Assembly (NCBI GenBank): GCA_002900535.1
Contig: MUGC01000005.1
Span: forward strand, 1 to 55,446
DNA length: 55,446 nt
Origin: Thermoplasmata archaeon M9B1D
GTDB taxonomy: Archaea > Thermoplasmatota > E2 > DHVEG-1
Direction: 5' to 3'
Under the pieces are notes generated by a model. It saw nothing but the letters and a program-made list of their open reading frames with translations. It made no database searches and had not been told where the DNA came from. Made by a program: the position numbers and the translations under genes. Below, piece after piece: positions 18,763 to 48,878 of this stretch (position 1 is its first letter; the number at the start of each line of letters is the position of its first letter).

Positions 18763-18776
18763 GGTGAAATTAAAAA

Positions 18777-24512: not shown

Positions 24513-25337
24513 CTATTTTTCTCCAAGTACCTTAATCATGCTAAGTATCTGACCATCTGTAAAACCCAAATGACCAATAGCTTGATTCAAGCAAGCTGCA
24601 GCACAAGAGCCACAACCTTTACAGAGTGCTTCATTTACTTCCGCTACAAGAACTTTATGTCCAAATCGATCTTTTTCAACAAGTTCAATCGCTTTATATG
24701 GGCATACCTCAACACAGAACCCGCAACCACGGCACAACTCTTCATTAACAGTTGCAATTGTCGCCTCAATTTCAAGCTTCTTTTTAGATAAAATATCGGT
24801 GGCACGTGATGCTGCTCCACTTGCTTGAGCAACTGTGTCGGGAACATCTTTTGGACTTTGGCAGCAACCGGCAAGAAAGATTCCATCTGTAAATGTATCA
24901 ACAGGTCTTAGCTTTGGATGTGCCTCTAAAAAGAACCCATCAGCACTCTGATTAATATTTAAAATTCGGGCAATTTCTTTTGAATCGTTACGAGGTACAA
25001 GACCAGCTGCAAGAACAACTAAATCTGCCTCAATATCTGGATGACCTTTAGCTTTTACAACAGCTTTAGCACCTTTTTGCTCGACTTTTATAGGATCATC
25101 AAGTTCACGGCGGCGATAATTAACATTTTCACCTTTAACACGGTTATAAAACTCTTCAAAGCCTTTCCCAAAAGCACGTACATCGGTATAATAAATTGTA
25201 AGATCTGCATCAGGGATTTTATCCCTGACCATATGAGCCTGCTTTGCTGTATACATACAACAAACACGACTACAGTACTCATTACCCTCTTTGTCACGGC
25301 TGCCTACACATTGAATAAATACAACTTTTTTACAAAT
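24513..25337 (-). CDS. hdrA: 3' segment (-1 frame) of the interrupted hdrA::gltD-like gene: HdrA C-terminal FAD-domain half plus 2x[4Fe-4S] ferredoxin
   Basis: The track ORF 24513..25256 begins MYTAKQAHMVRDK. The frame is open upstream to 25337 and reads ICKKVVFIQCVGSRDKEGNEYCSRVCCMYTAKQ, which is the conserved HdrA motif. It is colinear with, and partly identical in DNA to, the 3' end of 28095..29987. Confidence 0.75.
   Translation of the reverse strand: MCKKVVFIQCVGSRDKEGNEYCSRVCCMYTAKQAHMVRDKIPDADLTIYYTDVRAFGKGFEEFYNRVKGENVNYRRRELDDPIKVEQKGAKAVVKAKGHPDIEADLVVLAAGLVPRNDSKEIARILNINQSADGFFLEAHPKLRPVDTFTDGIFLAGCCQSPKDVPDTVAQASGAASRATDILSKKKLEIEATIATVNEELCRGCGFCVEVCPYKAIELVEKDRFGHKVLVAEVNEALCKGCGSCAAACLNQAIGHLGFTDGQILSMIKVLGEK
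25189..25333. repeat. 145-nt tract 100% identical to 28771..28915 (hdrA paralogs)
   Basis: Compared base by base by eye. The flanks drop to mismatched paralog-level similarity. The tract ends exactly at the frame break of the 25304..28123 gene. Confidence 0.85.
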
Positions 25338-28123
25338 TCAAGACCAGTTTTAACATTTTTAGATTTTCCATAAGCATACTCAAGTTTTTGAGTTGGATCA
25401 AATAAATCAAAACCAGTTGCAACAACAATAGCACCAACATCAAGTTCAACGATTTCTTCTTTCATATCATGGCATATTGCTCCCGCTTCACAAGTATTAA
25501 CACACTCGTAACATTCTGAGCAGCCACCACAGTTAAGACAACGCCTCGCTTCTTCTATTGCTTCTTCTTCAGAATAACCCAACTCTACTTCTTTGAAATT
25601 TTTGATTCTTTCTTTAACTGGAAGATACCTCATTGGAACCATATGTTTCTTTCTCAAACCTTCAACCGAAGGTTTTGCAATTTCAGGTTTTTCTTCACGT
25701 CCTTCTCTTAAGTCTTTTCCGTTGATATATCTATCAATGCTATCTGCTGCTCTTTTCCCAGCACCAATTGCTTCAATAACAGTTCCAGCACCCCAAACCG
25801 CGTCACCACCACTAAAAACACCTTCGATGTTTGTTTCAAGAGTAACAGGATCAGAATGAATAGTATCCCATTTTGTTAATTTTAAATCATCAAATTCATT
25901 TTTTGGAAAAGCAACAGGAACAACCTTTTTAGAACTCCATCGAGTCATTTCTAAATCAATTTCTTTAGATAAAAAATCAGTATCTAATTCTTGTCCAATT
26001 GCGAGGATAATGCTGTCTGCTCTTATTTTAAATTCAGAATCGAGAATTGGCTTGACCTTTCGTCTTCCACTTGTATCTTTTTCATCAAGAAGTTGCATTC
26101 TGATACATTCAACCTCTTTAACATTACCGTTTTTATCACCGACTACCCTAGTTGGTGCAACAAGATATACAAGTTTAACTCCTTCTTTTTCTGTTTCATC
26201 GATTTCCCAATCTGGTTCTGCTGGCATTTCTTCACGAGTACGACGATATAAAATAGAAACATCATTTGCCCCTAAACGTATAGCAGAACGAGCGGCATCT
26301 AAAGCTGCATTACCACCACCGATGACTAATACTTTTTTACCTATTTTTGGAGATAAATCTCTAAAACCTGATAACTTAATTGCTTTAGATGGACAAACTG
26401 ATGCGCATTTTCCACAGCCTCTACAAAGATATTTCTTATAAATCTGAGGATTTTTTTTCTTTGGATTTTTCGTATCCGGTTTTGTTTTAATTACTCCGTA
26501 ATAACAAACTTCTTCACATTTTCCACATCCTATACAGAGATTTTCGTTAATCTCAACAAGAGACGACGTAATAACTCGACCTAGATTTATATCTTTTAAA
26601 AAATCTATAGCCTGAAAAACGCCATTTAAATCTTCACCAGGGATATTCATCTTTTTGCCTTTTTGAGCACCTATTGATAAGAAAACGGATTTAAATCCAC
26701 GATTAAACAAATCTTGCAGAGTAAAATCTTTACCAAGCGCTGTATTAAGATGAACCTGTACTCCAAGTGCTAAAATATCAGAAATCTCTCGCTCAAGAAT
26801 TTCTTTAGGAAGCCTGAATGCTGGAATTCCAAAACGCATCATTCCTCCAAGTACTGATGCTGCCTCAAAGATAGATACGTGATACCCTTTTAATGCTAAA
26901 TCATGAGCACAGGTAAGACCTGCAGGTCCTCCACCAACTATAGCTATTTTTTCTGCTCTTGTCTCAATTGGAGGAATCTCTATAGCTGGAATCTTTAGCT
27001 CTAAATCACCAACAAATCTTTTAATATGTGCAATTTGGATAGGATCATCAAGATCTTTACGAGTACAAGCTTCTTCACATGGTCTATGACATATGCGACC
27101 ACAAATTGATGGAAAAGGTAGACGTTCCTTAATAACCCTGAGAGCTTCATAGAATTTCCCACGACCTACAAGAGTAACATAACCAGGAGCACCAACGCCC
27201 GCGGGACATACATCTCTACAAGGGTGCTTACCACGTTTATCAATCGTAGCTTTAAGAGGTACCGCCTGTGGAAAAGGAGTATATATAGCATGTCTAGTAC
27301 CATAGCCCTCATCAAATTCATTTGGTAATTCAACAGGACAGCCATTAAAGCACTCACCACAGCCTGTACATTTCTCCATATCGACATATCTTGGCTTCTT
27401 TTTCACTTTAACTTTAAAGTTACCAACGTAACCCTCAACACTTTCAATTTCGGAATAAGTCAATAATTCAACATTACAATGACGAGCAACATCAACCATT
27501 TTAGGAGTTAAAATACAAGCAGAGCAATCCATAGTTGGAAAAGTCTTATCAAGCTGAGCCATATGACCACCAATGCTTGGTGATCGTTCAACAAGATAAG
27601 TTTTAAAACCCATATTACCTATATCAATTGCTGCTTGAATACCAGCAATACCACCACCAACAACCAGAGCAGCAGGTGTTACACCAACTGTCTTTTTTTC
27701 AAGTGGTTTTAAAAGACCTACTTTAAAAACAGCACTTTGAACAAGTGATTTTGCTTTTTCTGTTGCTTCTTCCTTATTTTTATGAACCCAACTACATTGC
27801 TCACGAATATTTACCATCTCAAGGCAATATTCATTTAAACCCATATCTTTGAGTACTTTTCTAAATGTTGGTTCATGCATACGAGGAGAGCAACTTGCTA
27901 CAACAACCCGATCAAGTTTTAACTCTTTTATATCTTTTTTAATGAGTTCTTGCCCTGGATCAGAGCACATATACTTGTAAAATCTACTAACAGCAACATA
28001 TGGTAGTCTTTTTACATGTTCTACAACTTTTTCAACATCAACTGTTGCCGCAATATTGATTCCACATTCACAAACATATGCTCCAATTCGCAAATCACTT
28101 GCCTCCCTTGCTTTTATGAGCAA
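25304..28123 (-). CDS. hdrA: 5' segment of an interrupted HdrA::NfnB/GltD-like fusion (HdrA N-domain and FAD core, nested GltD-like module carrying its own inserted ferredoxin)
   Basis: 939-aa ORF.
- IGAYVCECGINIA (HdrA N-domain), VVGGGIAGIQAA, DKTFPTMDCSAC, CTGCGECFNGCPV.
- The GltD-like module follows, aa ~299-860 (LPFPSICGRICHRPCEEAC, IAIVGGGPAGLTCA, VIGGGNAALDAARSAIRLGA..YRRTREEMPA), with an extra CIGCGKCEEVC..CRGCGKCASVCP insert.
- The sequence then reads CLNCGGCSECYECVNTCEAGAI.
- The likely true start is TTG 28093 (LRIGAY aligns with MKIGVY of the paralog), 8 nt after GGGAGG and 1 nt after the upstream stop. Confidence 0.8.
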   Translation of the reverse strand: MLIKAREASDLRIGAYVCECGINIAATVDVEKVVEHVKRLPYVAVSRFYKYMCSDPGQELIKKDIKELKLDRVVVASCSPRMHEPTFRKVLKDMGLNEYCLEMVNIREQCSWVHKNKEEATEKAKSLVQSAVFKVGLLKPLEKKTVGVTPAALVVGGGIAGIQAAIDIGNMGFKTYLVERSPSIGGHMAQLDKTFPTMDCSACILTPKMVDVARHCNVELLTYSEIESVEGYVGNFKVKVKKKPRYVDMEKCTGCGECFNGCPVELPNEFDEGYGTRHAIYTPFPQAVPLKATIDKRGKHPCRDVCPAGVGAPGYVTLVGRGKFYEALRVIKERLPFPSICGRICHRPCEEACTRKDLDDPIQIAHIKRFVGDLELKIPAIEIPPIETRAEKIAIVGGGPAGLTCAHDLALKGYHVSIFEAASVLGGMMRFGIPAFRLPKEILEREISDILALGVQVHLNTALGKDFTLQDLFNRGFKSVFLSIGAQKGKKMNIPGEDLNGVFQAIDFLKDINLGRVITSSLVEINENLCIGCGKCEEVCYYGVIKTKPDTKNPKKKNPQIYKKYLCRGCGKCASVCPSKAIKLSGFRDLSPKIGKKVLVIGGGNAALDAARSAIRLGANDVSILYRRTREEMPAEPDWEIDETEKEGVKLVYLVAPTRVVGDKNGNVKEVECIRMQLLDEKDTSGRRKVKPILDSEFKIRADSIILAIGQELDTDFLSKEIDLEMTRWSSKKVVPVAFPKNEFDDLKLTKWDTIHSDPVTLETNIEGVFSGGDAVWGAGTVIEAIGAGKRAADSIDRYINGKDLREGREEKPEIAKPSVEGLRKKHMVPMRYLPVKERIKNFKEVELGYSEEEAIEEARRCLNCGGCSECYECVNTCEAGAICHDMKEEIVELDVGAIVVATGFDLFDPTQKLEYAYGKSKNVKTGLEFVKKLYLFNV
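27860..27999. repeat. 140-nt tract 100% identical to 29774..29913 (5' parts of the tandem hdrA paralogs)
   Basis: Compared base by base by eye. It encodes YKYMCSDPGQELIKKDIKELKLDRVVVASCSPRMHEPTF in both genes. Confidence 0.85.
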
Positions 28124-29987
28124 CTATTCCATCTATTTGTGCGATAATTTGTTTAACAGCAAAATGTCTCATTGAAATCGCGCCAGACGGACACGTAGAT
28201 GCGCAAGAACCGCATCCTTTACACATAACTTCGTTTACTCGCATAACGCCTGCTTTTTCATCAAATTCAAGAGCAGAATAAGGACACATCCTTTCACAGA
28301 CTTTACATCCACTGCATAAATCTTCATTAATAGTAGATGTAATTGCTTCAACCTCAACTTTACCTTGTGCAAGCGGTTCAGATGCGCGAACTGCTGCACC
28401 ACTTGCTTGAGCAACAGCATCAGGAATATCCTTTGGCCCTTGGCAGCAGCCAGCAAGAAAGATTCCATCTGTAAATGTATCAACAGGTCTTAGCTTTGGA
28501 TGTGCCTCTAAAAAGAACCCATCACTACTTTGACTAATATTTAATACTCGTGAAAACTCTTTAGCATCTTCTTTTGGAACTAACCCTACTGCTAGAACTA
28601 CAAGGTCTGCCTCAATATCAGAATAACCCTTTGCCTTAACAACTGTTTTATCGGCATTCGTTACAACCTCGATTGGATCATCAAGTTCACGGCGGCGATA
28701 ATTAATATTTTCACCTTTAACACGGTTATAAAACTCTTCAAAGCCTTTTCCAAAAGCCCTGACATCCGTGTAATAAATTGTAAGATCTGCATCAGGGATT
28801 TTATCCCTGACCATATGAGCCTGCTTTGCTGTATACATACAACAAACACGACTACAGTACTCATTACCCTCTTTGTCACGGCTGCCTACACATTGAATAA
28901 ATACAACTTTTTTACCATTGAGTACATTTTCACATGTTCCGTAACCATACTTGGGTTTTGTAAGAGGATCAAAAATATCATAACCTGTAGCAACAACAAT
29001 AGTTCCAACATCGATTGTGATTATTTCTTCTTCTTGACTAAAATCTATTGCTTCACGGTCACATGCCTCTTTACATAAAGGATGATCTCCGCATTTCCCA
29101 CGTTTAACCATTAAACAATTATTTGGATCAATTGTATATTTCAAAGGAACTGCCTGAGGAAATGGGACATAAATTGCACTACGTTTGCTAAGTTTCATGT
29201 CAAACTCATTAGGAATTCTTCCATGAAGACGACATGATTCAGCACAAACCCCACATCCAACACATTTATCTATATCAACGTAACGTGGTTTCTTTTTAAT
29301 TTTTACTTTAAAGTTACCAATATAACCATCAATATTTTCAACTTCCGAATAAGAAAGCAATTCGATGTTTGGATGCCGAGCAACATCGACCATTTTAGGA
29401 GTCAAGATACAAGCAGAGCAATCCATAGTTGGAAAAGTCTTATCAAGCTGAGCCATATGACCGCCAATACTTGGAGATCGTTCAACAAGATAAGTTTTGA
29501 AACCTTTATCAGCAATCTCAAGTGATGCCTGAATACCGGCAATACCACCACCAATCACAAGAGCCTTTGGTATTACACTTACCTCTTTTTTCTCAAGGGG
29601 CTCAAGAAATTCAGCTCGGCAAACAGCACCAGTAATAAGTTCAATTGCTTTTTCAGTTGCTACATCCTTGTCTAAATGAACCCAACTACAATGCTCACGT
29701 ATATTTACCATTTCAAAAAAATAAGGGTTTAAACCTGCTTCTTCAACAGCGGCTCTAAATGTTGGTTCATGCATACGAGGAGAGCAACTTGCTACAACAA
29801 CCCGATCAAGTTTTAACTCTTTTATATCTTTTTTAATGAGTTCTTGCCCTGGATCAGAGCACATATACTTGTAAAATCTACTAACAGCAACATTTGGAAT
29901 TTTCTCAATTTCTTTTGCAACTTTTTCAACATCAACTGTTGCTGCGATGTTGATTCCACATTGGCAAGTATATACTCCGATCTTCAT
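28095..29987 (-). CDS. hdrA: HdrA (single-core, canonical domain order: N-domain, FAD core with inserted ferredoxin, C-terminal ferredoxin)
   Basis: 630 aa. Motifs KIGVYTCQCGINIA, VIGGGIAGIQAS, DKTFPTMDCSAC, CVGCGVCAESC, IQCVGSRDKEGNEYCSRVCCMY, CSGCKVCERMCP and CKGCGSCASTCP are present. It lacks ~26 residues present in the other in-window HdrA cores (see findings). Confidence 0.85.
   Translation of the reverse strand: MKIGVYTCQCGINIAATVDVEKVAKEIEKIPNVAVSRFYKYMCSDPGQELIKKDIKELKLDRVVVASCSPRMHEPTFRAAVEEAGLNPYFFEMVNIREHCSWVHLDKDVATEKAIELITGAVCRAEFLEPLEKKEVSVIPKALVIGGGIAGIQASLEIADKGFKTYLVERSPSIGGHMAQLDKTFPTMDCSACILTPKMVDVARHPNIELLSYSEVENIDGYIGNFKVKIKKKPRYVDIDKCVGCGVCAESCRLHGRIPNEFDMKLSKRSAIYVPFPQAVPLKYTIDPNNCLMVKRGKCGDHPLCKEACDREAIDFSQEEEIITIDVGTIVVATGYDIFDPLTKPKYGYGTCENVLNGKKVVFIQCVGSRDKEGNEYCSRVCCMYTAKQAHMVRDKIPDADLTIYYTDVRAFGKGFEEFYNRVKGENINYRRRELDDPIEVVTNADKTVVKAKGYSDIEADLVVLAVGLVPKEDAKEFSRVLNISQSSDGFFLEAHPKLRPVDTFTDGIFLAGCCQGPKDIPDAVAQASGAAVRASEPLAQGKVEVEAITSTINEDLCSGCKVCERMCPYSALEFDEKAGVMRVNEVMCKGCGSCASTCPSGAISMRHFAVKQIIAQIDGIVAHKSKGGK
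28771..28915. repeat. partner copy of 25189..25333
   Basis: Identical 145-nt string, offset 3582 nt. Confidence 0.85.
29774..29913. repeat. partner copy of 27860..27999
   Basis: Identical 140-nt string, offset 1914 nt. Confidence 0.85.
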
Positions 29988-29996
29988 ATTTATCCT

Positions 29997-30836
29997 TCAC
30001 ATTTCTCCTTTCAAATTCTTAAGTTGATCATATGAAAAAACTGGTCCGTCTTTACACACATAAAGATTTCCAATGTTGCAACGACCACATTTGCCTATTC
30101 CGCATTTCATTCTCATTTCAAGTGTTGTAAATATTTGGTCTTCAGAAAAACCAATCTTTAGTAAGTTTTGTATTACAAACTTAATCATAATAGGAGGTCC
30201 ACATGTAATTGCAATTGTATTTTTTGGAGAAGGTTTAATCTTAAGCAAATTATCTGGAACAAAACCGACAAACTTTTTCCAACCTTTTTCTTCTTTATCT
30301 ATTGAAAGGTGAACATTAACATCTTTTCTTTTTTCAAGTTCCTCGAACTCGGGTTTGAAACAAATATCATTTGTTGAACGTGCACCATAAATAACATCGA
30401 TTTTACCGTAATTTTTACGATTATCAACAACGTAGTTAATCAATGAGCGGAGTGGTGCCTGACCGATACCACCACCAATAAATACTAGATTTTTGCCCTC
30501 CCATCCTTTAACATCAAAATTGTTACCATAGGGACCTCGTACACCTAGAGTATCACCTATTTCACATTCATGTAACGCAGAGGTTACCTTACCAAGTTTC
30601 ATCACACTAACTTCAATGTATTCTTTTTTTGTAGGAGCCGAGGATATTGCAAAGAAACATTCACCAAAACCAAAATGTGAAACCATTATGCATTGACCTG
30701 GAAGATATGAAAAATTTTTTTTGATTTTGTCATCTTGAAATATTAAGCGGAGGGTTTTAATTGCCCTTTCGCCTGTATTTTCCTGAACGATTTTTTCAAT
30801 TTTTGCAAGCCATGGTTGATATGGATTTTCTGTTAT
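29997..30836 (-). CDS. FlxA/HydG/NfnA-family FAD/NAD(P)-binding [2Fe-2S] flavoprotein (extended N-terminus, apparent ATA start)
   Basis: The track ORF 29997..30686 starts mid-domain. The same frame is open 150 nt further upstream and encodes ITENPYQPWLAKIEKIVQENTGERAIKTLRLIFQDDKIKKNFSYLPGQCIM, homologous to the N-terminus of 17932..18762. The C-terminal MKCGIGKCGRCNIG..VCKDGPVF is present. Confidence 0.75.
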   Translation of the reverse strand: MTENPYQPWLAKIEKIVQENTGERAIKTLRLIFQDDKIKKNFSYLPGQCIMVSHFGFGECFFAISSAPTKKEYIEVSVMKLGKVTSALHECEIGDTLGVRGPYGNNFDVKGWEGKNLVFIGGGIGQAPLRSLINYVVDNRKNYGKIDVIYGARSTNDICFKPEFEELEKRKDVNVHLSIDKEEKGWKKFVGFVPDNLLKIKPSPKNTIAITCGPPIMIKFVIQNLLKIGFSEDQIFTTLEMRMKCGIGKCGRCNIGNLYVCKDGPVFSYDQLKNLKGEM

Positions 30837-31858
30837 GCTTTCACCTCTCTTGCTTGATCAATAATATCAATTATGTCAATGTTAACAGGACAATCATTAA
30901 TGCAACGACCACAACCAACACAAGCAATTATGTTATAGTTTTTAGGATAATAGTTAAACTTATGATACACACGGTTACGGGTTCTATTCATCCTCGCAGG
31001 TCGTGGATTATGACCTGAAGCATGTACAGTATATTCAGGGTTCATACATGTATCCCAAACACGAACACGGGCACCATCTGAAAGTGTTGTTTCATCCTGG
31101 ATGTCAAAGCAATGACACGTTGGACATTGATAAGTACATATTCCACAGCCTAAGCATTTCAATGAAATGTTTTTCCAAATAGGATCTTCAAATATTTTGT
31201 CAAGTTTTTCAACAATACCTTTTGTATTCATATTTCTTGTAATTGCTTTTTCTACTTTTTCGGAAATTTCCTGTTTTTTATTTTTATCTGAAGAAGAAGC
31301 TTTGGAAAACAAGTCTTTACTAGTTTTTACAACTTCGTTTCCTTTACTAGTTTTTATTTCGACATAATATTTATCACCAATATCTGTTAAAAGAATATCT
31401 ACATCCTCAGCAAATGCAGGTCCACCATTCATTGATGTACAGAAACAGTTAACGCCAGGTTTTATACAAGAAAGTCCAATAAGAACTGTATTTTCTCTTT
31501 TATTCATATAATACGGATCGACAAAATCGTCCTTAAACACAAAATCAACAATGGAAAAACTTTTTGCATCGCAAGGTCTAATTCCAAAAATCACATTTTT
31601 TGAATTTGGAAAATCAACAGATTTGACCTCTGCAGAAATACCTTGTTTAAATTTAAATAAAGTTTCAGTCTGGCAAAATAAAATAGATTTTGGTGACACC
31701 TTTGAATTTAAAAAATCAAGATTTATTTCTTTATAATCATTTATAGGTTTAAATAATGTAATATTATCACATTTTGTCGGTGCTAAAACTGTGTATCTTG
31801 ATTGAATTTTTTTAATTAGTTGAGGAAGTTTATTTTTTTCTAATGTTAACGTTTCCAT
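30833..31858 (-). CDS. FlxB/HydB/AsrA-family Fe-S protein
   Basis: 341 aa. It is a paralog of 16881..17930 (FGIRPCDAKS, CLGCGICTYQCPTCHC, CVGCGRCINDCP). Confidence 0.7.
   Translation of the reverse strand: METLTLEKNKLPQLIKKIQSRYTVLAPTKCDNITLFKPINDYKEINLDFLNSKVSPKSILFCQTETLFKFKQGISAEVKSVDFPNSKNVIFGIRPCDAKSFSIVDFVFKDDFVDPYYMNKRENTVLIGLSCIKPGVNCFCTSMNGGPAFAEDVDILLTDIGDKYYVEIKTSKGNEVVKTSKDLFSKASSSDKNKKQEISEKVEKAITRNMNTKGIVEKLDKIFEDPIWKNISLKCLGCGICTYQCPTCHCFDIQDETTLSDGARVRVWDTCMNPEYTVHASGHNPRPARMNRTRNRVYHKFNYYPKNYNIIACVGCGRCINDCPVNIDIIDIIDQAREVKA
30841..30847 (-). promoter_or_regulatory. Shine-Dalgarno GAGGTGA placed 4 nt upstream of ATA 30836..30834, which overlaps the upstream TAA as ATAA
   Basis: Reverse complement of 30833..30848: AGAGAGGTGAAAGCATAA. 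Confidence 0.5.
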
Positions 31859-31875
31859 ATTATTTTTTTCTCTCC

Positions 31876-34239: not shown

Positions 34240-34241
34240 GA

Positions 34242-35675: not shown

Positions 35676-35676
35676 A

Positions 35677-36096: not shown

Positions 36097-36108
36097 AATT
36101 TTTTCACC

Positions 36109-36582: not shown

Positions 36583-36595
36583 AGATATTTTTCCT

Positions 36596-38988: not shown

Positions 38989-39010
38989 ATACTACCACCT
39001 TTTTCAAATC

Positions 39011-39892: not shown

Positions 39893-39897
39893 AGTTA

Positions 39898-40326: not shown

Positions 40327-40328
40327 AT

Positions 40329-43300
40329 CTAATTCTCCTTTCCAAGAAGAGCATCTACCATGACTCTGATTTGTTTATTTTTAAATCCTTTTTGTTCAAT
40401 TGCTCCAGACGGACAAGCCGCGGCACACGCGCCACAGCCTTTACATAAAGCTCTGTTAACCGTTGCTACTAGATGGTCAGGTTTATCCTGTCTTGGTTTT
40501 ACTTCAATTGCACTATAAGGACAAATTCCTTCACAAGTCTGACAACCACTACATAAATCATCGTTTACCTCTGCAACTTGACCCTCACCTTTCATTTTCT
40601 CTTGCATTATTGGAATCGCTGCACGTGATGCTGCTCCTTCAGCCTGTGCAATTGAATCAACAAGGTTTTTTGGGTAATGTGCAGCACCACAAAGATATAT
40701 TCCATCTGTAGCAAAATCAAGTGGTCTTATTTTTGCATGAGCTTCTAAGAAAAATCCGCCTGCATCAGCAGGTATTTTAAGCATATTTTTAAGTGTATTA
40801 GTAAGCACTTCACCTTCAGTGTTGACTGTTAGTACTACTAGATCCGCATCAAGAACTAGCTCTTCATTTAGGATGTCGTCATATACCTTAACAGTCATAG
40901 GTCCTTCTTTTGGATCTTTTTTATCAAGTTTTATCTCAGGTTTTTTATCACCAGGATACCTAACTACTGTGACATGATGATTTTTTAAAACATTTGAGTA
41001 ATACTCCTCTTCTTCTTTTCCAAAAACACGCATATCACGATAGAGCAGCCAAATCTTTACACCAGGATATCTCTCAGAAATAAGTTTAGCATTTTTAATT
41101 GCAACACCACAACCTATACGACAGCAATATGGTCGTTTTTCATCCATTGCCCCAGCGCAGTTAACAATAACAACGTTTTTAGGTTTCTTTTTAAGTGTAC
41201 CTTCCTTGATTTTTTCTTCAAGTTCAGTTTGAGATATTATATTTTTATTTTTACCATAATGATATCGACCTTCAAGGTCTATTTCTCTAAAACCAGTTGA
41301 AACAATTATTGTTCCAAACTCAATTTTTCTCTTTTTGCTCTTATGTTTAATTATTCCCTCATAGTTCCCAATAAAACCATCAATGTCAACCAGTTCCGAT
41401 TCTGTCATGACAGTTATAAGTCTATTTTTAGTAACTTGTTTAATCAATGGATCAATAATATCTTTTGCTTTAATATCAGATGGGAACATTGAGTGCAGAT
41501 GTTTAAGTCGTCCACCTAATTCTTTTTCTTTTTCAATTAAATATGATTTAACACCCATATCTGCAAGTGCAAGAGCTGCCTTCATACCTGATACTCCACC
41601 GCCAATCACAAGTACCGATGGAATAATAGAAAATTCTTCTTCACTAAGTGGCTCTAACAGTCGTACTTTAGCAACTGCTGCATTTACAAGATTTATAGCT
41701 TTATCTGTTGCCTTGTCCCAGTCGTCAGAATGAACCCAACTACAGTGATTACGAATATTTGCCATTTCAAACAAATACTTGTTTAAACCTGATTCAAGCA
41801 ATGTATCTTGGAATAAACCACCATGCGTTCTTGGCGAGCAAGCTGCAACAATGATTCTATTAAGTTTTTGATCCTTTATAGTATCGCGTATCTTCTTACA
41901 AGTATCTTCAGAACATGCAAACATCACATGTTCTGCATAAACCACATTTGGTCGCTTTTTGACTTCTTCGGTTACTTTTTCAACATCGAGATAACTGGCA
42001 ATATTTTTACCACAATGACAAATGAAAACACCAATTCTTGGCTCCTCTAAAGATACATCTTTTTCTGGAGGAAAGTCACGACCCACATGTCGTTTTCTGT
42101 CTTTCACTGGTGCGACTGCTTTTGCGGCAGCACCACTAGCCATACTAACGCTGTCGGGGATATCCTTTGGACCCTGTATACATCCTGCTAAAAATATTCC
42201 TGGTTTAGTTGATTGTACAGGGTTTTGTAAAAGTGAATCCTGCTTGAAAAAACCATTTTCATCCACTTCAATTCCAAGGATTTTTGCAATTTTTTTATTA
42301 TCTTTTGCAGGAATAATTGCTGTTGAAAGGACAAGAAGGTCGACTTTATCTTCCTTTACTTTACCAGAAAGCGTGTCTCTGTATCGTATTGTTAAACTCT
42401 TATCCTTGTTTTCATAGACATTAGAGGGGCGACCTCGGATATATTTTACACCCAGATCTTTTGCATGATCATAATATTGTTGGAAATCCTTACCATATGC
42501 TCGGATATCCATATAATAAATATTAATATTAATACCAGGATTTGCCTCTTTTACAATACTTGCCTCTTTAGTCGCATACATACAGCAAACACGGGAACAA
42601 TAGGGATATCCTTCTTGTTCACTACGTGAGCCTACACATTGTATCCAACCAATCTTTTTAGGCTTGTTTAAATCTGAAGGACGGAGTACTTTGCCTGCAG
42701 TAGGGCCAAAACTTGATAAAAGACGTTCGAACTGCATAGCAGTCATAACATTTTCGTATTTACCATAGCCATATTCCTTACGTAATTCACTTGGTTCAAA
42801 TACTTCAAAACCAGTTGCTATAACAATTGCGCCTGCTTTAACCTCGATTTCTTCTGATTTTTCTAGAAAAGTTATTGCCCCTGGCTCACAAACCCTATCA
42901 CAAGCACCACATCCAGTACAATGTTCATGATCAATTGTATAAACAATCGGAACCGCTTGTGGAAACTCTATATAAATTGCTTTTCGAGTTGAAATTTTTT
43001 CATTAAAACTACTAATAACATCCACAGGACAAACCGCGGTACAGTCATCACAACCAGTACATTTGTCTGGATCAACATATTTCGTTTTCTTCCAAATCTG
43101 TGCTGTGAAATCTCCTTTTTTACCTTCTAATTTGTTAAGTTCTGCATAAGTAATAAGTTCAATGTTAGGGTGACGAGCAAGTTCTACCATTTTAGGTGCA
43201 GCTGTACATATACTGCAGTCATTTGTTGGAAAAGTCTTATCTAATTTAACCATTGATCCGCCAATTGTTGAGGTTTTATCAATTATAACTACCTTGTAGC

Positions 43301-43544
43301 CTTTATCAGCGACATCCAGGGCAGATTGCATACCAGAAATCCCAGCACCAATAATTAGCACATCTGAGTCGATTACCCGTTTTTTCTTTTTAAAAGCCAT
43401 CTGCGTTATACCCTTAACTGTTGTCTCAGGCGAAGGCATTTTGTCTTCTAAAATAGCTAGTTCAGGCTCATCTAAAAAGTAATCATCAGCAAGAGGAATT
43501 CCTTGGTCATGATCTATTTTTTGGTTATATCTTCTTGAGGGCAT
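40329..43544 (-). CDS. hdrA: tandem HdrA-HdrA fusion (two FAD cores with complementary accessory domains)
   Basis: 1071 aa.
- Core 1: [76 protein letters not shown].
- Core 2: [14 protein letters not shown] N-domain, [12 protein letters not shown], no inserted ferredoxin, C-terminal [24 protein letters not shown].
- The start is uncertain, because there is a 20-nt overlap with the upstream gene. Confidence 0.85.
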   Translation of the reverse strand: [1071 protein letters not shown]

Positions 43545-44067
43545 TCTTTCCTGCCTCTACTCCTTTTTGATATGCTTTTTCATTTAGCTCTAAAAATCTT
43601 TTTGGGACACTATCAAGAACGGCTTTTTTTACTGCTTCTTCATCAATTAATCCAAATATTGCCATTGATGCTCCTACCATTACAATATTTGTAACAATTT
43701 TGTTACCAAGTTCTTCTGCGATTTTTTGCGCTTGAACTTTGTACACAGGTCTGCCAATATCATGTTTTGGAACAAGATCGGGGTCTATGACAATCTTTGT
43801 ATCTTTGTTAAGATCATCTCGATATGTGTCAAATGATTCCTGACTCATTGCAACAAGTAAATCTACACCAGTGGGGCGAGGATATCCTATTTTTTCATCA
43901 GAAATAATTACTTCTGATCGTGCTGCGCCTCCTCGTGCTTCAGGACCATATGATTGAGATTGAACAGCATTATAATCCATAAAAACAGCTGCTGCTTTTC
44001 CAATGATAAATCCTGAAAGAATTACACCTTGACCGCCAAAACCACAGATTCGGATTTCTTTTTTCAT
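43525..44067 (-). CDS. korG: 2-oxoacid:ferredoxin oxidoreductase gamma subunit
   Basis: 180 aa, with ICGFGGQGVILSG. The delta-alpha-beta-gamma gene order favours a 2-oxoglutarate-type (Kor) enzyme, but specificity cannot be read from the sequence. Confidence 0.8.
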   Translation of the reverse strand: MKKEIRICGFGGQGVILSGFIIGKAAAVFMDYNAVQSQSYGPEARGGAARSEVIISDEKIGYPRPTGVDLLVAMSQESFDTYRDDLNKDTKIVIDPDLVPKHDIGRPVYKVQAQKIAEELGNKIVTNIVMVGASMAIFGLIDEEAVKKAVLDSVPKRFLELNEKAYQKGVEAGKNALKKI

Positions 44068-44960
44068 TTTTGCACCACCGCCTTTGCCTTAACAGGTGTT
44101 TTTGGTGATCCGCCCATAACTCTGTCGACTAGTTTTTCATATCTTTCAAAAAATCCCGGGTTATTCAAATCCTGGAAAACCCCTATTGGAAACATATCTT
44201 TGACTTCTTCTTTTTCTTTTTCAGTTCCATAATTCATGATTCTTTCATAATCCTCAATAAGAATAGTGTTGTTATCATACCATTCCCAGTGTTTCTTGAT
44301 ATCACCAAGTTTGTTACGTCTTCCAAAAGCTGTTGGGCATGGTGCCAAAAATTCTACTAATGAAAAACCTTTCTTGCTAAGTGCATCCTTAACTGATTTA
44401 ATTGGCTGATAAGGATGAGTAACGGTCCAACGTGCAACATAATTTGCACCAAGAGCTTTTGCAAGATTACAAATATCAAATGGTGGTTCAATGTTTCCAT
44501 AAGGAGCTGTCGTTGCAATACTACCTAATGGTGCAGTAGGTGCAAGCTGACCTCCAGTCATACCATAAATAAAATTATTTATCATAATTACGGTCATGTC
44601 CATATTTCTTCTAGCTGCGTGAATAAAGTGATTTCCACCTATTCCTGCACAGTCTCCGTCTCCTGTAAAAATTATTAGATTTAGATCAGGATTTGCAGCT
44701 TTTATTCCAGTGGCAAATGCTATTGCTCTACCATGGGTTGTATGAAGACCATCCGCGTTTATGTAACCAGGCATTCTAGATGAGCAACCTATCCCTGAGG
44801 CAAAAACTGTTTTATCCATATCCCAGCCTAATTCCTCAAGAGCCCAAAGAGTATACTCTAATACTACTCCATGACCACATCCATTACAGAAAATAGTGGG
44901 CCACATCCCGTCTCTGAGGAATTTTTTATTTAACTGATCTGCGGTTTTTACTTCAACCAT
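44064..44960 (-). CDS. korB: 2-oxoacid:ferredoxin oxidoreductase beta subunit (TPP-binding)
   Basis: 298 aa. Motifs CNGCGHG, GIGCSS and FTGDGDCAGIGGNH are present. Confidence 0.9.
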   Translation of the reverse strand: MVEVKTADQLNKKFLRDGMWPTIFCNGCGHGVVLEYTLWALEELGWDMDKTVFASGIGCSSRMPGYINADGLHTTHGRAIAFATGIKAANPDLNLIIFTGDGDCAGIGGNHFIHAARRNMDMTVIMINNFIYGMTGGQLAPTAPLGSIATTAPYGNIEPPFDICNLAKALGANYVARWTVTHPYQPIKSVKDALSKKGFSLVEFLAPCPTAFGRRNKLGDIKKHWEWYDNNTILIEDYERIMNYGTEKEKEEVKDMFPIGVFQDLNNPGFFERYEKLVDRVMGGSPKTPVKAKAVVQK

Positions 44961-44961
44961 T

Positions 44962-46146
44962 TTATTTCACTCCCAGATATTTTAAAAGTTCAACAGGCAG
45001 ATGCATTTCACCGCCTATTTTTGGAGCAACCTCAACTTCACAGTTTCCGCATGCTGCTTCTCTAACTGGATGATAGATTTGGCCAAGGTTCATCTCTGGA
45101 ACAATTATTTTATCAACCTGCTTTGCAAGTTTGGCTACAATTTTCTCAGGAAAGGGCCAAACAATTTTTAATGTTAGAAGCCCTACTTTTTTACCTTTTG
45201 ACCGTGCTATTTCCATAGCTGTTTCAGCAGGACGAGCACTAGCACCATATGTTACAAAAACCGTATCTGCATCATCAAGATTGAATTTTTCAACTTTCAC
45301 AAGTTTATCAGCATCATCCGTAATTTTTTCAGTGATTCTTTTAACAAGTCTTTCATGATCTTTTTGTTTATCAGTTGCTGGAAAACCTTTCTCATTATGA
45401 GTAAGACCTGTAACATATGTATGATACCCTATACCAAATGTTGGAAAATCAGGAACTTTACTACCTTTTACTGTTTGAGAATTTGTAAATGGTATGTATT
45501 TATTTTTTGAAATTGTTGCCTCAACTCTATTAATAAGTTTTAGATCTTTTTCATCTGGAATAACTATTCTTTCACGTAAATGTCCCATCTCACCATCTGT
45601 CATAACACATACAGGATTACGATATTTCTCAGAAAGATTAAATGCTTCAATTGTAAGATCTAGACATTCCTGTACTGTGCTTGGCGCAAATGCTAATGCT
45701 TCAAGATCGCCATGAGTCCCGTAGCGCGCTTGCATCATATCACCCTGGGCACCTAGTGTTGGTTGTCCAGTGCTGGGACCTGTTCTTTGAACATTTACTA
45801 TTACACAAGGTGTTTCAGTCATGACAGCAAAACCATAATTTTCCATCATAAGTGAAAAACCAGGTCCAGATGTCGCAGTCATGGATTTTGCACCACCCCA
45901 AGCAGCACCAATTACTGCAGCAATACTTCCGATCTCATCTTCCATCTGAATATATGTTCCACCAACACGTGGAAGCATTCTTGCCATTCCTTCAGCAACT
46001 TCTGATGCTGGAGTAATCGGATATCCACCAAAAAATGAAACACCAGCGAGTAGACCTCCATAAACACAGGCCATGTCGCCTAGTAGAAACTGGACTTTAT
46101 TTCCTAATACCTCTCTTATCTTTTTAGGATCACGCTTATATACCAT
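44962..46146 (-). CDS. korA: 2-oxoacid:ferredoxin oxidoreductase alpha subunit
   Basis: 394 aa. Motifs GGYPITPASE and TATSGPGFSLM are present. Confidence 0.9.
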   Translation of the reverse strand: MVYKRDPKKIREVLGNKVQFLLGDMACVYGGLLAGVSFFGGYPITPASEVAEGMARMLPRVGGTYIQMEDEIGSIAAVIGAAWGGAKSMTATSGPGFSLMMENYGFAVMTETPCVIVNVQRTGPSTGQPTLGAQGDMMQARYGTHGDLEALAFAPSTVQECLDLTIEAFNLSEKYRNPVCVMTDGEMGHLRERIVIPDEKDLKLINRVEATISKNKYIPFTNSQTVKGSKVPDFPTFGIGYHTYVTGLTHNEKGFPATDKQKDHERLVKRITEKITDDADKLVKVEKFNLDDADTVFVTYGASARPAETAMEIARSKGKKVGLLTLKIVWPFPEKIVAKLAKQVDKIIVPEMNLGQIYHPVREAACGNCEVEVAPKIGGEMHLPVELLKYLGVK

Positions 46147-46147
46147 A

Positions 46148-46402
46148 TTATTTCCTTCCCCCTACCGGTCTTAAAAGAGTTTTTCTACTTTCTTTCTTTT
46201 TATCATCAGTAAATACAGTTATTGCAAGATCTGGACACAATAACTCGCAGAGTCTGCAATAATTGCATTCATTAACCTTCTTGAGCCTTGGTGGGCGCAC
46301 ACCTCTCTTATTCATTTTATCAGATTCTTCTAGTGCATTCACTGGACAACGCTCTATGCAGATCCTGCAACCTTTGCACCAATCTTCATTTACTTCAATC
46401 AT
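46148..46402 (-). CDS. korD: 2-oxoacid:ferredoxin oxidoreductase delta subunit (2x[4Fe-4S] ferredoxin)
   Basis: 84 aa. Motifs CKGCRICIERCP and CNYCRLCELLCP are present. Confidence 0.8.
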   Translation of the reverse strand: MIEVNEDWCKGCRICIERCPVNALEESDKMNKRGVRPPRLKKVNECNYCRLCELLCPDLAITVFTDDKKKESRKTLLRPVGGRK

Positions 46403-46411
46403 GCTTTTTCC

Positions 46412-48058
46412 TCAGAAAATATCAAGTGATCTAGAAATTGCCATTTCACCGCGGTATTCAGGTAAGATTATTGGTGCGGTTTTCTTTGGTTTTATTCCAG
46501 CGTTATCAAGGATCTTATTATATTTATTCAAGTGTGAAAGGGTTAGTTTCCCGATTTTTGCTTTTTTAACATATTTTGCAGCATAAATACCTGCTCGTCT
46601 ACCAAACACATTGAAATCCAAAAGTGAGTTACCCATCAGTCTATTTTTGCCATGTACCCCTCCAGATACTTCACCAGCAGCAAAAAGTCCAGGTATACGA
46701 GTTTCACATTTTTCATTTATTTCTACACCGCCATTCTGGTAGTGAAGTGTTGGGTAAACAAGAATTGGATGTTTGGTAATGTCTATGTTAAATCTTTTAA
46801 ATTTTCGAACCTCCCCAGAGAGTTTAGTTGCAATGGTTCCTTCACCATGAATTATTTCAATCATTGGTGTATCTAGCCAAACGCCGGGCATTCCAGTTGG
46901 TGTAACTACGCCTCTTCCTTCTTTGCATTCACGAATGAGTGATGCTGATTCAACATCACGAGGTTCAAGTGGAAAAACAAATGGGTCACCATCAGCGTTA
47001 AGCGGAATGGCACCAAGACCTCGAATTTTTTCAGTTGACAATATACCTACTATGGGCTCTGGAAATGCGTCACCCGTTGGGTGAATCTGAATCGTGTCAA
47101 GATCAAGTAAGTTTGCTCCCACATGATATGCCATTACAAGACCATCACCAGTTGCACCATAATGATTTGTTGTTGGATAATTAGATAGATGAAGTCTACC
47201 AGATCCACCAGTTGCAAGAATTGTTGCTTTAGCACGTATTACATAATATTCATATGTTTCAAGGTTAAATGCTACTGCTCCAGCGACTTGTCCTTTATCA
47301 TCCATAATTAGCTCTGCTATAGGGCAAAACTCAAGAACTGGGATTTGAAGATTTCTTGCATTGTCTCGAATGTTTCTCATTATTTCCATACCGGAATAAT
47401 CCTTACAGCTGTGCATACGATTACGGCAGGTTCCACCGCCTGAGAGTTCTTGAAATTCTCCATCATCAAGTCTATCATACATTACACCTAGTTGTTCATG
47501 CCAGTTGATAATAAGAGGAGCATCGAGTGCTAGTGCACGAGCAAGTTCAGGTTTATTTGTGAAATGTCCTCCACCATAAATATCAAGATAATGTAATGCA
47601 GGGTTGTCATTAGGACGATCTGCTGCTTGAATACCACCTTGAGCCATCATGCTGTTTGCATCACCATGGCGAAGTTTTGTAACAATTAAGATTTTCTCGA
47701 TTGGAATCCCTGATTCACGGGCAAAAAGAGCAGCAACTGTTCCTGCTCCACCTCCTCCAATTATTAAAAGATCAACATCGTAATCAATCTTGCTAAGATC
47801 AACATCTTTTGGGTCTAGAACTGGGCGTGATTCAAGTAGATCTACAATTCCATTGTAAAAAATTTGACCTTTGTCAACTCCAACACGGAGTTCACGTCGA
47901 GTTCCCTGCATATAATCTGGATGATACTTACCTAGCATGTCCTCCCTTTCTTTCATGTTCATTGGTTTAATCGGATGCTTCATGTTGTGTTCTCGTTTCT
48001 TTTCTACAAGTTTTATTGATTCCATCATATAATCTGGATAACCATCAATAAGTTTCAA
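46412..48058 (-). CDS. succinate dehydrogenase/fumarate reductase-family flavoprotein (soluble type, ~95-aa N-terminal extension)
   Basis: 548 aa. Motifs IIGGGGAGTVAA, NSMMAQGGIQAA, LATGGSGR, IQIHPTG and GLFAAGEVSGGVHGKNRL are present. Confidence 0.65.
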   Translation of the reverse strand: MKLIDGYPDYMMESIKLVEKKREHNMKHPIKPMNMKEREDMLGKYHPDYMQGTRRELRVGVDKGQIFYNGIVDLLESRPVLDPKDVDLSKIDYDVDLLIIGGGGAGTVAALFARESGIPIEKILIVTKLRHGDANSMMAQGGIQAADRPNDNPALHYLDIYGGGHFTNKPELARALALDAPLIINWHEQLGVMYDRLDDGEFQELSGGGTCRNRMHSCKDYSGMEIMRNIRDNARNLQIPVLEFCPIAELIMDDKGQVAGAVAFNLETYEYYVIRAKATILATGGSGRLHLSNYPTTNHYGATGDGLVMAYHVGANLLDLDTIQIHPTGDAFPEPIVGILSTEKIRGLGAIPLNADGDPFVFPLEPRDVESASLIRECKEGRGVVTPTGMPGVWLDTPMIEIIHGEGTIATKLSGEVRKFKRFNIDITKHPILVYPTLHYQNGGVEINEKCETRIPGLFAAGEVSGGVHGKNRLMGNSLLDFNVFGRRAGIYAAKYVKKAKIGKLTLSHLNKYNKILDNAGIKPKKTAPIILPEYRGEMAISRSLDIF

Positions 48059-48060
48059 AA

Positions 48061-48825
48061 TTAGTCACCTCCAAGGCTTTCGGTTTCATCTGCTTCGATT
48101 TTTCTATTTTTATAAAGCTCCATGATTTCTTTTTTTGTTATTTTTATAAGTTTTTCTATTTCATCATTATATTTTCGGTTATCAATTTCTTTTAGTCTTT
48201 TTGCTAGATTTTTTGACTTCGGATCGATATATTTTCCCCTTAACCTTCTGGCAAGTTGAGCTAAATGATAATGTTTAATATCTGCAGGACAACGCATAGC
48301 ACAAAGACCACATTGAATGCAATCAAACGACAATTCTGCACAACGTGCAATGTCGCCTCTTATCGCCATCTGGATATATTTCATTGTTTCAATATCCTGT
48401 GGACAAGACTTAGTGCAAGTATTACAAGATACACATCGAGCAATCTCAGGATACATTTCTAAGAGAATAGTATCACTTGGCAGTATTTTTTCAATATCAT
48501 ATTCTGTTTTTGAAGCAGGAACAAACGGAAGTTGAACAAGATACATTTTATCTTCAACGACTTTTTGACATGCAAGATCAAAGCCTAGCTTTTGTTCATC
48601 CTCAATTCTATAAACCGTTGAACATGCACCACAAAAACCAGCACGGCATCCACAACCTCTAATAAAACGGTAACCGGCATATTCAAGTGCTTTCATAATT
48701 GTAAGTCCAGCTGGAACTTTGTAACTTTTACCCATTATGAAAACTTCAACTTCACCAGCTTTTGTTTTTTCATCCTTAGATTTTTTCTTCTGCTTTTCAA
48801 TAAGGACCTGTTTACTTTCACCCAT
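48061..48825 (-). CDS. SdhB/FrdB-like Fe-S subunit ([2Fe-2S] plus two Cys clusters), no CCG domain
   Basis: 254 aa. Motifs GCGCRAGFCGACS, CVSCNTCTKSCP and CIQCGLCAMRCP are present. It is the first gene of the long minus-strand array. Confidence 0.65.
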   Translation of the reverse strand: MGESKQVLIEKQKKKSKDEKTKAGEVEVFIMGKSYKVPAGLTIMKALEYAGYRFIRGCGCRAGFCGACSTVYRIEDEQKLGFDLACQKVVEDKMYLVQLPFVPASKTEYDIEKILPSDTILLEMYPEIARCVSCNTCTKSCPQDIETMKYIQMAIRGDIARCAELSFDCIQCGLCAMRCPADIKHYHLAQLARRLRGKYIDPKSKNLAKRLKEIDNRKYNDEIEKLIKITKKEIMELYKNRKIEADETESLGGD

Positions 48826-48870
48826 GTTATTTTCCCCACAAAAAAGATAATATTAATTTCATAAATCTCT

Positions 48871-48878
48871 CTATATAA
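48871..48878 (-). promoter_or_regulatory. candidate archaeal TATA box (TTATATAG on the minus strand) ~46 nt upstream of the 48825 start
   Basis: This is the only strong TATA-like octamer at a sensible distance. The background is AT-rich, so support is weak. Confidence 0.25.

Follow-up and report, generated by a model that had tools for sequence, protein, structure and literature searches.

How does an archaeon that makes no methane employ a heterodisulfide reductase (Hdr) and an Mvh-type hydrogenase, and with which partners? This question is raised by contig MUGC01000005.1 (assembly GCA_002900535.1), a stretch of 55,446 nucleotides (nt) that was analysed in full and is called the window below. 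It is scaffold_99 of M9B1D, a metagenome-assembled genome (MAG) of the Thermoprofundales (Marine Benthic Group D, hereafter MBG-D) from Mai Po mangrove sediment. On its minus strand, from 48825 to 24513, lies a 24-kb array in which genes for a fumarate reductase (Frd)-like pair, a 2-oxoacid:ferredoxin oxidoreductase (Kor), Hdr subunits and the hydrogenase are followed by two dehydrogenase modules and further hdrA genes. Our analysis showed that the first 13 genes form a core of invariant order in the MBG-D loci that span it, and that the rest are modules which vary among relatives. In the paper describing the MAG, M9B1D_scaffold_99_47, 48 and 50 were annotated as FrdA, FrdB and SucC, respectively (PMC6461988).

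Layout of the array and its conserved core

Gene and domain calls were made by Pfam, NCBIfam and PDB searches of the window proteins. The array consists of 22 consecutive open reading frames (ORFs), numbered here as genes 1 to 22 from the 5′ end and all on the minus strand, as the first-pass annotation of this DNA had read them. The last two ORFs are one frameshifted hdrA, which makes 21 genes. From 5′ to 3′ the junctions measure 2, 9, 1, 1, −4, −20, 2, 5, 22, −4, 13, 12, 1, 2, −23, −7, 17, 146, 9, −29 and 47 nt. All of them had been given as gaps of 22 nt or less or as overlaps; this is true of 19 of the 21 junctions but not of those of 146 nt (before gene 19) and 47 nt (before the ORF at 24513–25256). 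The array is operon-like.

The Pfam, NCBIfam and PDB matches agree with the gene identities previously read from the sequence. Gene 1 (48061–48825) encodes an FrdB-like Fe-S protein with Pfam Fer2/Fer4 domains and weak NCBIfam matches to TfrB and SdhB, and gene 2 (46412–48058) an FrdA/TfrA-like flavoprotein (PF00890). Genes 3–6 (43525–46402) encode KorD, KorA, KorB and KorC, the subunits of a four-subunit Kor (Pfam, NCBIfam), and gene 7 (40329–43544) a two-core HdrA of 1071 aa, with 1034 bits to NCBIfam HdrA2 and an alignment to PDB 8rvu. They are followed by HdrC (142 aa) and HdrB (293 aa, two CCG domains) in genes 8–9 (39011–40326; Pfam, NCBIfam), by MvhG, a group 3c-type NiFe MvhA and a HycI-type maturation protease in genes 10–12 (36109–38988; Pfam, NCBIfam VhuG/VhuA), and by MvhD in gene 13 (35677–36096; FlpD domain, PF02662 at 194 bits), which by synteny is the last gene of the core. 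Beyond it lie a GlcD-type FAD dehydrogenase and a 322-aa GlcF-like Fe-S/ferredoxin/MvhD fusion in genes 14–15 (33271–35675; Pfam, NCBIfam). Genes 16–19 (29997–33293; Pfam, NCBIfam, PDB FdhB) form a Flx-like module of MvhD, an FdhB-C-terminal-like Fe-S protein, a HydB/AsrA-like Fe-S protein and a HydG/AsrB-like FAD/NAD(P)-binding protein. The array ends with a canonical type I HdrA in gene 20 (28095–29987; Pfam), whose orthologue in the closed relative MAG CP070836.1 (locus L047) is intact at 648 aa, and with one type III HdrA carrying a GltD-like NAD(P)H-type insert in genes 21/22 (24513–28123), which is a single 1294-aa ORF in CP070836.1. The earlier count of three FlpD/MvhD domains and one hydrogenase in the array was confirmed; a second hydrogenase, of group 3b, lies in the window 4 kb downstream of the array on the other strand.

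GTDB species representatives were scanned with the two-core HdrA as query, and all window proteins were then mapped onto the loci found. There were 24 Thermoplasmata-type loci at 72–88% identity, besides Chloroflexota and other bacterial loci at 35–42%. At least genes 1–6 were present in 16 of the 24 Thermoplasmata-type loci, and the whole of genes 1–13, in the same order, in 13 of them. The MBG-D loci that reach far enough all have SucD, SucC and a winged helix-turn-helix (wHTH) regulator on one strand, then a spacer of 250–300 nt, then genes 1–13 in identical order with core junctions of −25 to +63 nt. The invariant core is therefore FrdBA-like, KorDABC, two-core HdrA, HdrCB, MvhGA, protease and MvhD, and orthologues are 72–93% identical at the protein level in about 20 species. 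Because the arrangement recurs in about 20 species-level genomes, it is not due to chance.

What follows the core differs among relatives. Four loci (L016, L020, L021 and L024) have the GlcD block and the Flx-like block after it, as in the window, up to the end of the sequence fetched (gene 18 or 19), and L047 extends the bin105 copy through genes 21/22. Two others (L012 and L015) pass from MvhD, or from the protease, directly to the Flx-like block, the GlcD block being absent. L011 has the GlcD/FeS-MvhD genes and then 3b-type hydrogenase genes, with Flx and the extra HdrA not beside the core. In a further seven (L007–L010, L017, L025 and L044) tblastn found a 62–65%-identical GlcD, roughly 2.1 kb of sequence, and weak HdrC- and HdrB-like matches. 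At one of these loci, L007, Pfam resolved the 2.1-kb stretch into genes for a Fer4+CCG (GlcF/HdrD-like) protein and for a lipoate-protein ligase (LplA), after which come HdrC and HdrB. This LplA-HdrC-HdrB block, joined to the main array in the seven relatives, is the cluster that is kept apart in the window at 12837–5483. Synteny in relatives had been named beforehand as the check on the array: genes 1–13 came through it with invariant order and spacing in the MBG-D loci long enough to show them, while the GlcD and Flx-like/HdrA blocks turned out to be accessory. Since the modules vary among relatives, the 21 genes are not one obligatory hub but look like a conserved core with exchangeable modules. 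Each module probably has its own HdrA.

The only obvious promoter space had been placed at 48826–49111, shared with a divergent double-wHTH regulator, and this proved right, for a single conserved promoter-like element was found there in 17 loci. It is the B recognition element (BRE)/TATA-like element AAAAAGTTTATATTATAT (48971–48988, minus strand), conserved in 17 aligned MBG-D intergenic regions; the conserved AAAAAGTTTATAT element at this place fits an archaeal BRE/TATA box. It lies about 160 nt upstream of gene 1, and the leader is unusually long for an archaeon. On the minus strand between 24000 and 49200 it was the only match to AAA-N1-3-TTTATA[AT]. Scans with BRE/TATA patterns, which are weakly predictive in this AT-rich contig, gave no convincing internal promoter in the array. 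The alignment of the 17 loci also showed that the leader contains two conserved elements, the block GGGAGGA(A/G)CC..TTGG and an imperfect palindrome, ATGGCA-N5-(T/G)GCCAT (48903–48944, minus strand), which could be a putative operator of the wHTH regulator or an element of the 5′-untranslated region or RNA. The leader in the window also holds a 30-codon ORF (MAFKAINPD...), whose conservation is not obvious. The regulator (49112–50230, plus strand) has two wHTH domains by Pfam, MarR-like at the N-terminus and TrmB-like at the C-terminus, and is divergent in all relatives. It is followed by SucC and SucD, the divergent operon's genes for succinyl-CoA synthetase (50249–52222, plus strand; Pfam), which are syntenic in relatives. 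With this arrangement it is plausible that the array would be transcribed as one unit from a promoter at about 48980. Scans for sigma-70 promoters and intrinsic terminators, made with bacterial models unsuited to an archaeon, gave counts no higher than the shuffle expectation. Terminator-like sites were in mild excess between 36500 and 50000 (14 against 7.5 expected), but this again came from a bacterial model and was not used.

Components of the core and of the modules

The FrdB-like protein (254 aa) contains a 2Fe-2S motif and two CxxCxxCxxxCP motifs, as read from its translation; Pfam found only Fer2 and Fer4 domains in it, and no PF02754 (CCG). The best NCBIfam match of gene 2 is TfrA, at 314 bits, which does not pass the cutoff of 718. 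Aligned to E. coli FrdA/SdhA, gene 2 has kept the dicarboxylate site, that is, the residues which we take to be H232, R287, H355 and R390 of E. coli FrdA. At the position of the covalent-FAD His44 it has Asn, which indicates non-covalent FAD. Studies of FrdA and SdhA mutants have shown that non-covalent FAD favours fumarate reduction over succinate oxidation. The substitution thus favours fumarate reduction as the predicted direction of the FrdA-like protein, uncertain as that direction is, and the standard potential of the fumarate/succinate couple (+33 mV) also points to it (PMC5861303). The Frd-like pair is soluble, with no membrane anchor. TfrAB of Methanothermobacter (Heim et al. 1998, cited in PMC11237513) is likewise soluble, has an Fe-S partner with one 2Fe-2S and two 4Fe-4S motifs, and is functionally surrounded, as here, by Hdr-type CCG chemistry and Kor. 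However, TfrB carries fused CCG domains, whereas CCG is found here only in the separate HdrB, and gene 2 has a 95-aa N-terminal extension.

All four Kor subunits (delta ferredoxin, alpha, beta with thiamine pyrophosphate, and gamma) were identified by Pfam. KorA (alpha) passed the cutoff of NF006412 with 542.6 bits against 411; beta, gamma and delta stayed below their own cutoffs. Specificity for 2-oxoglutarate is suggested by one feature only, the adjoining SucCD. The KorC stop and the HdrA start overlap by 20 nt (43525–43544), the same length in every relative examined, and the overlapped N-terminal extension of HdrA is kept at the protein level. This suggests that Kor and the two-core HdrA may be translationally coupled.

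In gene 7, residues 90–425, 494–680 and 916–1068 align to residues 182–517, 4–190 and 509–654 of HdrA in PDB 8rvu. The DKTFPTNDCSIC motif (DKTFPTxDCSxC) and an inserted ferredoxin domain occur only in the first core, which suggests that the two-core HdrA would be a built-in asymmetric pseudo-dimer. By the classes of PMC12054007, gene 7, with its two thioredoxin-reductase domains, is a type II HdrA. Gene 20 is type I. Genes 21/22 are type III: their GltD-like insert, several hundred residues long, sits in the region of the inserted ferredoxin, and on either side of it they are 69–70% identical to gene 20. Types I, Ia, II and III have been described in methane-metabolising archaea, with only nine type III sequences reported (PMC12054007), whereas types I, II and III occur here all in one operon of a non-methane-metabolising member of the Thermoplasmata; fused double HdrA has been found in Asgard and TACK archaea (PMC11237513).

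HdrB has kept both CCG domains. Its NCBIfam HdrB score is 166.9 bits (cutoff 345), followed by SdhE at 141 bits, and HdrC scores 84.7 bits against a cutoff of 160. The core shares with MvhADG-HdrABC of methanogens (PDB 5odc, 8rvu) a contiguous subunit set of NiFe large and small subunits, MvhD, HdrA (FAD and Fe-S), HdrC (two 4Fe-4S clusters) and two-CCG HdrB. It differs in that its HdrA is the two-core fusion, that it is co-encoded with the Frd-like pair and Kor, and that all subunits of the set fall below the equivalog cutoffs. We infer that CoM-S-S-CoB, the heterodisulfide of coenzymes M and B, is an unlikely substrate, because the organism is a non-methanogen.

The first accessory module consists of genes 14 and 15. 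Gene 14 has FAD_binding_4 and FAD-oxidase_C domains and scores 388 bits on the GlcD equivalog (cutoff 568). Gene 15 has kept the GlcF-like N-terminal Fe-S domain, its CCG part being replaced by ferredoxin and MvhD. The MvhD domain of gene 15 matches PDB MvhD chains and shares 35–38% identity with the free MvhD proteins of the array, between which the identity is 66%. Few proteins are related to gene 15 over its full length: among 1.84 billion representatives they make up about eight clusters at 50% identity. Homologues of a 39%-identical relative are named from Acidobacteriota, Desulfobacterales, Syntrophorhabdaceae and Desulfovibrionales. All three distant loci examined (L049 5559–9227, L050 5550–9205 and L051 2528–6191) have the order GlcD (477–480 aa), FeS/MvhD, LarA. 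Two of them are from bacterial-named records, L050 being named Deltaproteobacteria, and no hydrogenase or HdrA was found within 7 kb of the triplet in any of the three. The triplet of L049 continues into a DUF5981 gene, which we take to be MetV-like, and a methylenetetrahydrofolate reductase (MetF) gene. The window also has a LarA-like gene (623–1882), adjoining an acyl-CoA dehydrogenase gene and 32 kb from the GlcD module. LarA in the triplet and in the window points to lactate, and the substrate of the GlcD-type dehydrogenase is probably D-lactate. By its gene order, the GlcD-FeS/MvhD-LarA triplet is an independent case of an MvhD domain predicted to serve a non-hydrogenase dehydrogenase.

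FlxABCD of Desulfovibrio comprises a FAD/NAD(P)-binding FlxA, two Fe-S proteins (FlxB and FlxC) and an MvhD-like FlxD. In the Fdh-MvhD-HdrABC-Fmd complex of Methanospirillum, FdhB reportedly contacts MvhD, and a CO2-fixing ferredoxin-dependent enzyme is said to be wired directly to HdrA. By their domains, genes 16–19, which lie next to hdrA, resemble the Flx part of FlxABCD-HdrABC (Ramos et al. 2015, cited in PMC12054007 and PMC5861303). Here, however, the order is D-C-B-A, and the block is followed only by hdrA genes (20, type I, and 21/22, type III), with no hdrBC of its own; the one hdrCB pair in the array is found 7 kb upstream, next to the hydrogenase. On this point the earlier reading, in which FlxABCD-HdrABC was strung into the array, was not supported as it stood. 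Gene 17 shows homology to the C-terminal portion of FdhB (PDB 9t1s, 7bkb and 8rvu; E = 1e-31 to 6e-24). In the Methanospirillum complex (PDB 7bkb; also 8rvu, 9t1s), MvhD adapts a non-hydrogenase dehydrogenase to HdrA; the array has neither an Fdh catalytic subunit nor Fmd, and the partners here would be HydB/HydG-like NAD(P)H modules and Kor. In acetogens, MetFV-HdrABC-MvhD also combines MvhD and HdrA with a non-hydrogenase partner (PMC5861303, PMC9430772), while the window has no MetFV genes. The proposal that MvhD is a generic plug for non-hydrogenase dehydrogenases is thus borne out in spirit by the GlcD-FeS/MvhD-LarA triplet but is not new, as Fdh-MvhD-Hdr (7bkb), MetFV-HdrABC-MvhD (PMC5861303) and FlxD are known.

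Proposed electron routes and alternative readings

We favour, with moderate confidence, the reading that the Mvh-Hdr core is a bifurcating or confurcating redox system, coupled to ferredoxin and Kor and to an HdrBC-linked sink, with exchangeable modules. The identities, order, spacing and conservation of the genes, the modular variation and the intact catalytic motifs are observed; the electron paths, the substrates, the direction and the single transcript are what we infer. In such a system MvhAG would oxidise or make H2, and the [2Fe-2S] cluster of MvhD would pass electrons to the two-core HdrA with its bifurcating flavin. The low-potential branch would lead to ferredoxin and Kor. The high-potential branch would run via HdrC and HdrB to a disulfide or via the FrdB-like to the FrdA-like protein, reducing fumarate to succinate. 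Together with the divergent SucCD, fumarate, succinate, succinyl-CoA and 2-oxoglutarate could be linked to H2 and ferredoxin. As add-ons, the lactate-type GlcD would work with its MvhD-ended Fe-S subunit, and the NAD(P)H dehydrogenase of the Flx-like module with an MvhD of its own, the type I HdrA and the GltD-insert HdrA. Most likely these add-ons would be separate HdrA-centred complexes which share ferredoxin and the high-potential sink, not parts of one mega-complex. Methanogens also combine Mvh-Hdr, thiol:fumarate reductase and Kor; the logic is the same, and here it is found in one operon.

Several observations weigh against this reading. The Chloroflexota loci have HdrA-MvhD-HdrCB only, without Frd and Kor, so that the link with Frd and Kor is lineage-specific and could be one of co-regulation only. 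CCG domains like those of TfrB are missing from the FrdB-like protein, and the disulfide-reductase site of HdrB is apparently complete, which argues for a real thiol/disulfide substrate as against direct wiring to Frd. The NCBIfam equivalog cutoffs were missed for all proteins but KorA, and substrate specificities are uncertain for this reason. The BRE/TATA pattern is narrow and the genome AT-rich, so that promoters may also lie inside coding sequence. None of the array genes appears in the transcript table of the PMC6461988 supplements.

The main rival explanation, which we consider doubtful yet the strongest of those weighed, is co-regulation without direct coupling. The Frd-like pair and Kor, with SucCD, would then be a tricarboxylic acid (TCA) cycle branch for glutamate and aspartate that works through free ferredoxin, the Mvh-Hdr and other modules would balance ferredoxin, H2 and NAD(P)H, and the clustering would reflect shared regulation by the wHTH protein. 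The complete HdrB site and the Chloroflexota clusters fit this view, as do the neighbouring genes for SucCD, an aminotransferase, malic enzyme and phosphoenolpyruvate carboxykinase; the published MAG analysis also assigned FrdAB to the TCA cycle and Kor to the breakdown of amino acids (PMC6461988). On the other hand, the anchorless Frd-like pair has no obvious donor besides the co-encoded Fe-S and Hdr proteins. The invariant KorC/HdrA overlap and the gene order kept over about 20 species, moreover, suggest stoichiometric co-production.

It is unlikely that the 13-gene core encodes an Mvh-Hdr-Frd-Kor supercomplex in which the two-core HdrA bifurcates H2 electrons, one branch going through HdrCB and FrdBA to fumarate with no free heterodisulfide, the other through KorD to 2-oxoglutarate synthase for the reductive carboxylation of succinyl-CoA. 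In a related reading, a lipoylated GcvH-like protein would be the disulfide that Hdr uses in this lineage.

It is quite unlikely that, as the first-pass annotation had suggested, the products of all 21 genes make up one hub, whether a soluble mega-complex or an obligatory network in which H2, NAD(P)H, lactate, ferredoxin and fumarate meet at HdrA sites, three MvhD adaptors docking three dehydrogenases there. The co-directional packing with overlaps across module borders speaks for it, and so does the contiguity of genes 1–19 in four relatives and, in L047, through genes 21/22. The three MvhD domains roughly equal the HdrA genes in number (three), and very large Hdr supercomplexes have a precedent in Fdh-Hdr-Fmd (PDB 7bkb). 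However, the modules are separable. The GlcD/FeS-MvhD block is missing from two relatives (L012 and L015), a GlcD-GlcF-LplA-HdrCB block stands in place of Flx in seven, and L011 is without Flx and the extra HdrA beside its core. In three other lineages, furthermore, GlcD-FeS/MvhD-LarA occurs with neither HdrA nor hydrogenase within 7 kb.

The window copy itself carries lesions that could be taken for decay of the cluster. We compared it with two contigs of the same population, Ga0136851_10004029 (L001; same sample, independent assembly) and Ga0118657_10003302 (L002), and with CP070836.1. Indels aside, the window is 100% identical to the former contig and about 99.98% identical to the latter. 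In the window, 69 nt of mvhA are missing at the junction of 37865 and 37866; they encode ERFAQGRRAEDMPQITSRICGVC, with the N-terminal nickel ligands and the RICGVC motif. MvhA of both contigs has RICGVC, whereas the window copy has the C-terminal DPCFAC but not the N-terminal motif. The orthologues in L002 and L047 are 486 aa long, and the intact L002 copy scores 429 bits on VhuA (cutoff 800). Gene 20 lacks 72 nt at about 28914, equal to the 24 aa LEFERLVSASGPTEGHIKINGKEP. Both deletions are in frame. Genes 21/22 are split at about 25335 by a frameshift that lies in an A6 run, and this creates the apparent 47-nt gap. A 124-nt perfect repeat common to the two hdrA paralogues (28791–28914 = 25209–25332) is flanked by the hdrA lesions, and no repeats were found at the edges of the mvhA deletions. 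L001 (8416, 17379) and L002 (about 17380) carry their own, different indels; altogether these are deletions of 23–72 nt or frameshifts across mvhA and the two hdrA. In CP070836.1 every gene from 6 through 21/22 is intact. Selenocysteine recoding was considered for the hdrA split and rejected, as the two ORFs do not share a reading frame and the gene breaks within the A6 run; pseudogenisation was rejected as the main reading, the other assemblies and the closed MAG being intact.

Another irregularity concerns gene 19. The 146-nt stretch before it is an open frame with no canonical start, and a start at ATA (30834–30836) would give a 4-nt overlap. At the same position, ATG is found in six orthologous loci, as part of an ATGA stop/start overlap, and the window and the two same-population contigs have ATAA. 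This G-to-A change is a real variant, since three assemblies of two samples share it. The start of gene 19 is probably ATA 30836, and the ATAA implies either a non-canonical start or termination-reinitiation.

Decay of the array in this organism is very improbable, although the lost nickel motif, the two hdrA lesions, the ATA start, a further frameshift in the group 3b hydrogenase and the differing indels of the two IMG contigs might suggest it: the 69-nt and 72-nt segments are present in the other, independent assembly from this sample, the perfect paralogue repeat flanked by the HdrA lesions is of the kind where misassembly is typical, CP070836.1 is intact, and 72–93% protein identity in about 20 species indicates purifying selection. 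We read the lesions as probable assembly errors or minor population variants, not as gene decay.

Neighbouring genes and significance

A second Hdr cluster was found in the window at 5483–12837 on the minus strand. It comprises an LplA-like gene (11761–12837), HdrC (11279–11764), HdrB (10398–11279), an HdrA of 1478 aa (5965–10401) and a GcvH-like gene (5483–5917), whose product has an SSK lipoyl-lysine motif. The set of LplA, HdrC, HdrB, HdrA and a GcvH-like lipoyl carrier recalls the sHdr-LbpA-lipoate ligase system of sulfur oxidisers (PMC6067878). Unlike that system, the HdrA here is a two-core protein with a GltD insert, the sulfur-transferase genes DsrE and TusA were not seen nearby, and the organism ferments anaerobically and is no sulfur oxidiser. 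The cluster makes a lipoyl protein a candidate for the Hdr disulfide of this lineage. Between it and the malic enzyme gene are two tandem 182-aa ORFs (13013–13561 and 13700–14248, minus strand) with no significant family match.

The group 3b (sulfhydrogenase-type) NiFe operon, with beta, gamma, delta and alpha subunits, is at 16881–20802 on the plus strand; a frameshift near 19850 divides its large subunit into two ORFs (19538–19882 and 19870–20802). Directly downstream of the array, and convergent with it, the segment 22750–24508 (plus strand) encodes an Mrp/NBP35-type Fe-S carrier ATPase, a DUF134 helix-turn-helix protein and a Nitro_FeMo-Co (NifX/NifB-C-like) protein, which are possible helpers in Fe-S maturation. 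In CP070836.1, too, the array is followed by a Nitro_FeMo-Co gene (L047 20177–20542). Near the contig end, a full-length serpin gene (52288–53589, minus strand; PF00079, 401 bits) adjoins an aminotransferase gene and a truncated aldehyde:ferredoxin oxidoreductase gene. Searches of the window for tRNAs and Rfam families gave no match.

The array is not described in the Thermoprofundales papers PMC6461988 and PMC9585477, where FrdAB, Kor and HdrA are listed apart or Hdr is absent. A 2024 study noted only hydrogenase groups and a fumarate reductase flavoprotein, and the 2018 review list of bifurcating complexes has no fumarate-linked Hdr system (PMC5861303). The modules are of known kinds; what we take to be new is that a conserved Frd-Kor-Hdr-Mvh core is joined by exchangeable MvhD/HdrA modules.

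MBG-D belong to the most widespread archaea of marine sediments. Hdr and Mvh are common in such non-methanogens. The conserved operon with the Frd-like pair, Kor and SucCD leads to a testable proposal for their high-potential substrate, namely fumarate or a lipoyl-protein disulfide. If the supercomplex of the 13-gene core were true, it would be the TCA-branch counterpart of the methanogen Fdh/Mvh-Hdr-Fmd, which bifurcates and fixes CO2, and would answer what Hdr and Mvh do in a non-methanogen. The GlcD/MvhD and Flx-like/HdrA modules, in turn, suggest that the MvhD-HdrA interface has been reused for donors of the lactate and NAD(P)H types.

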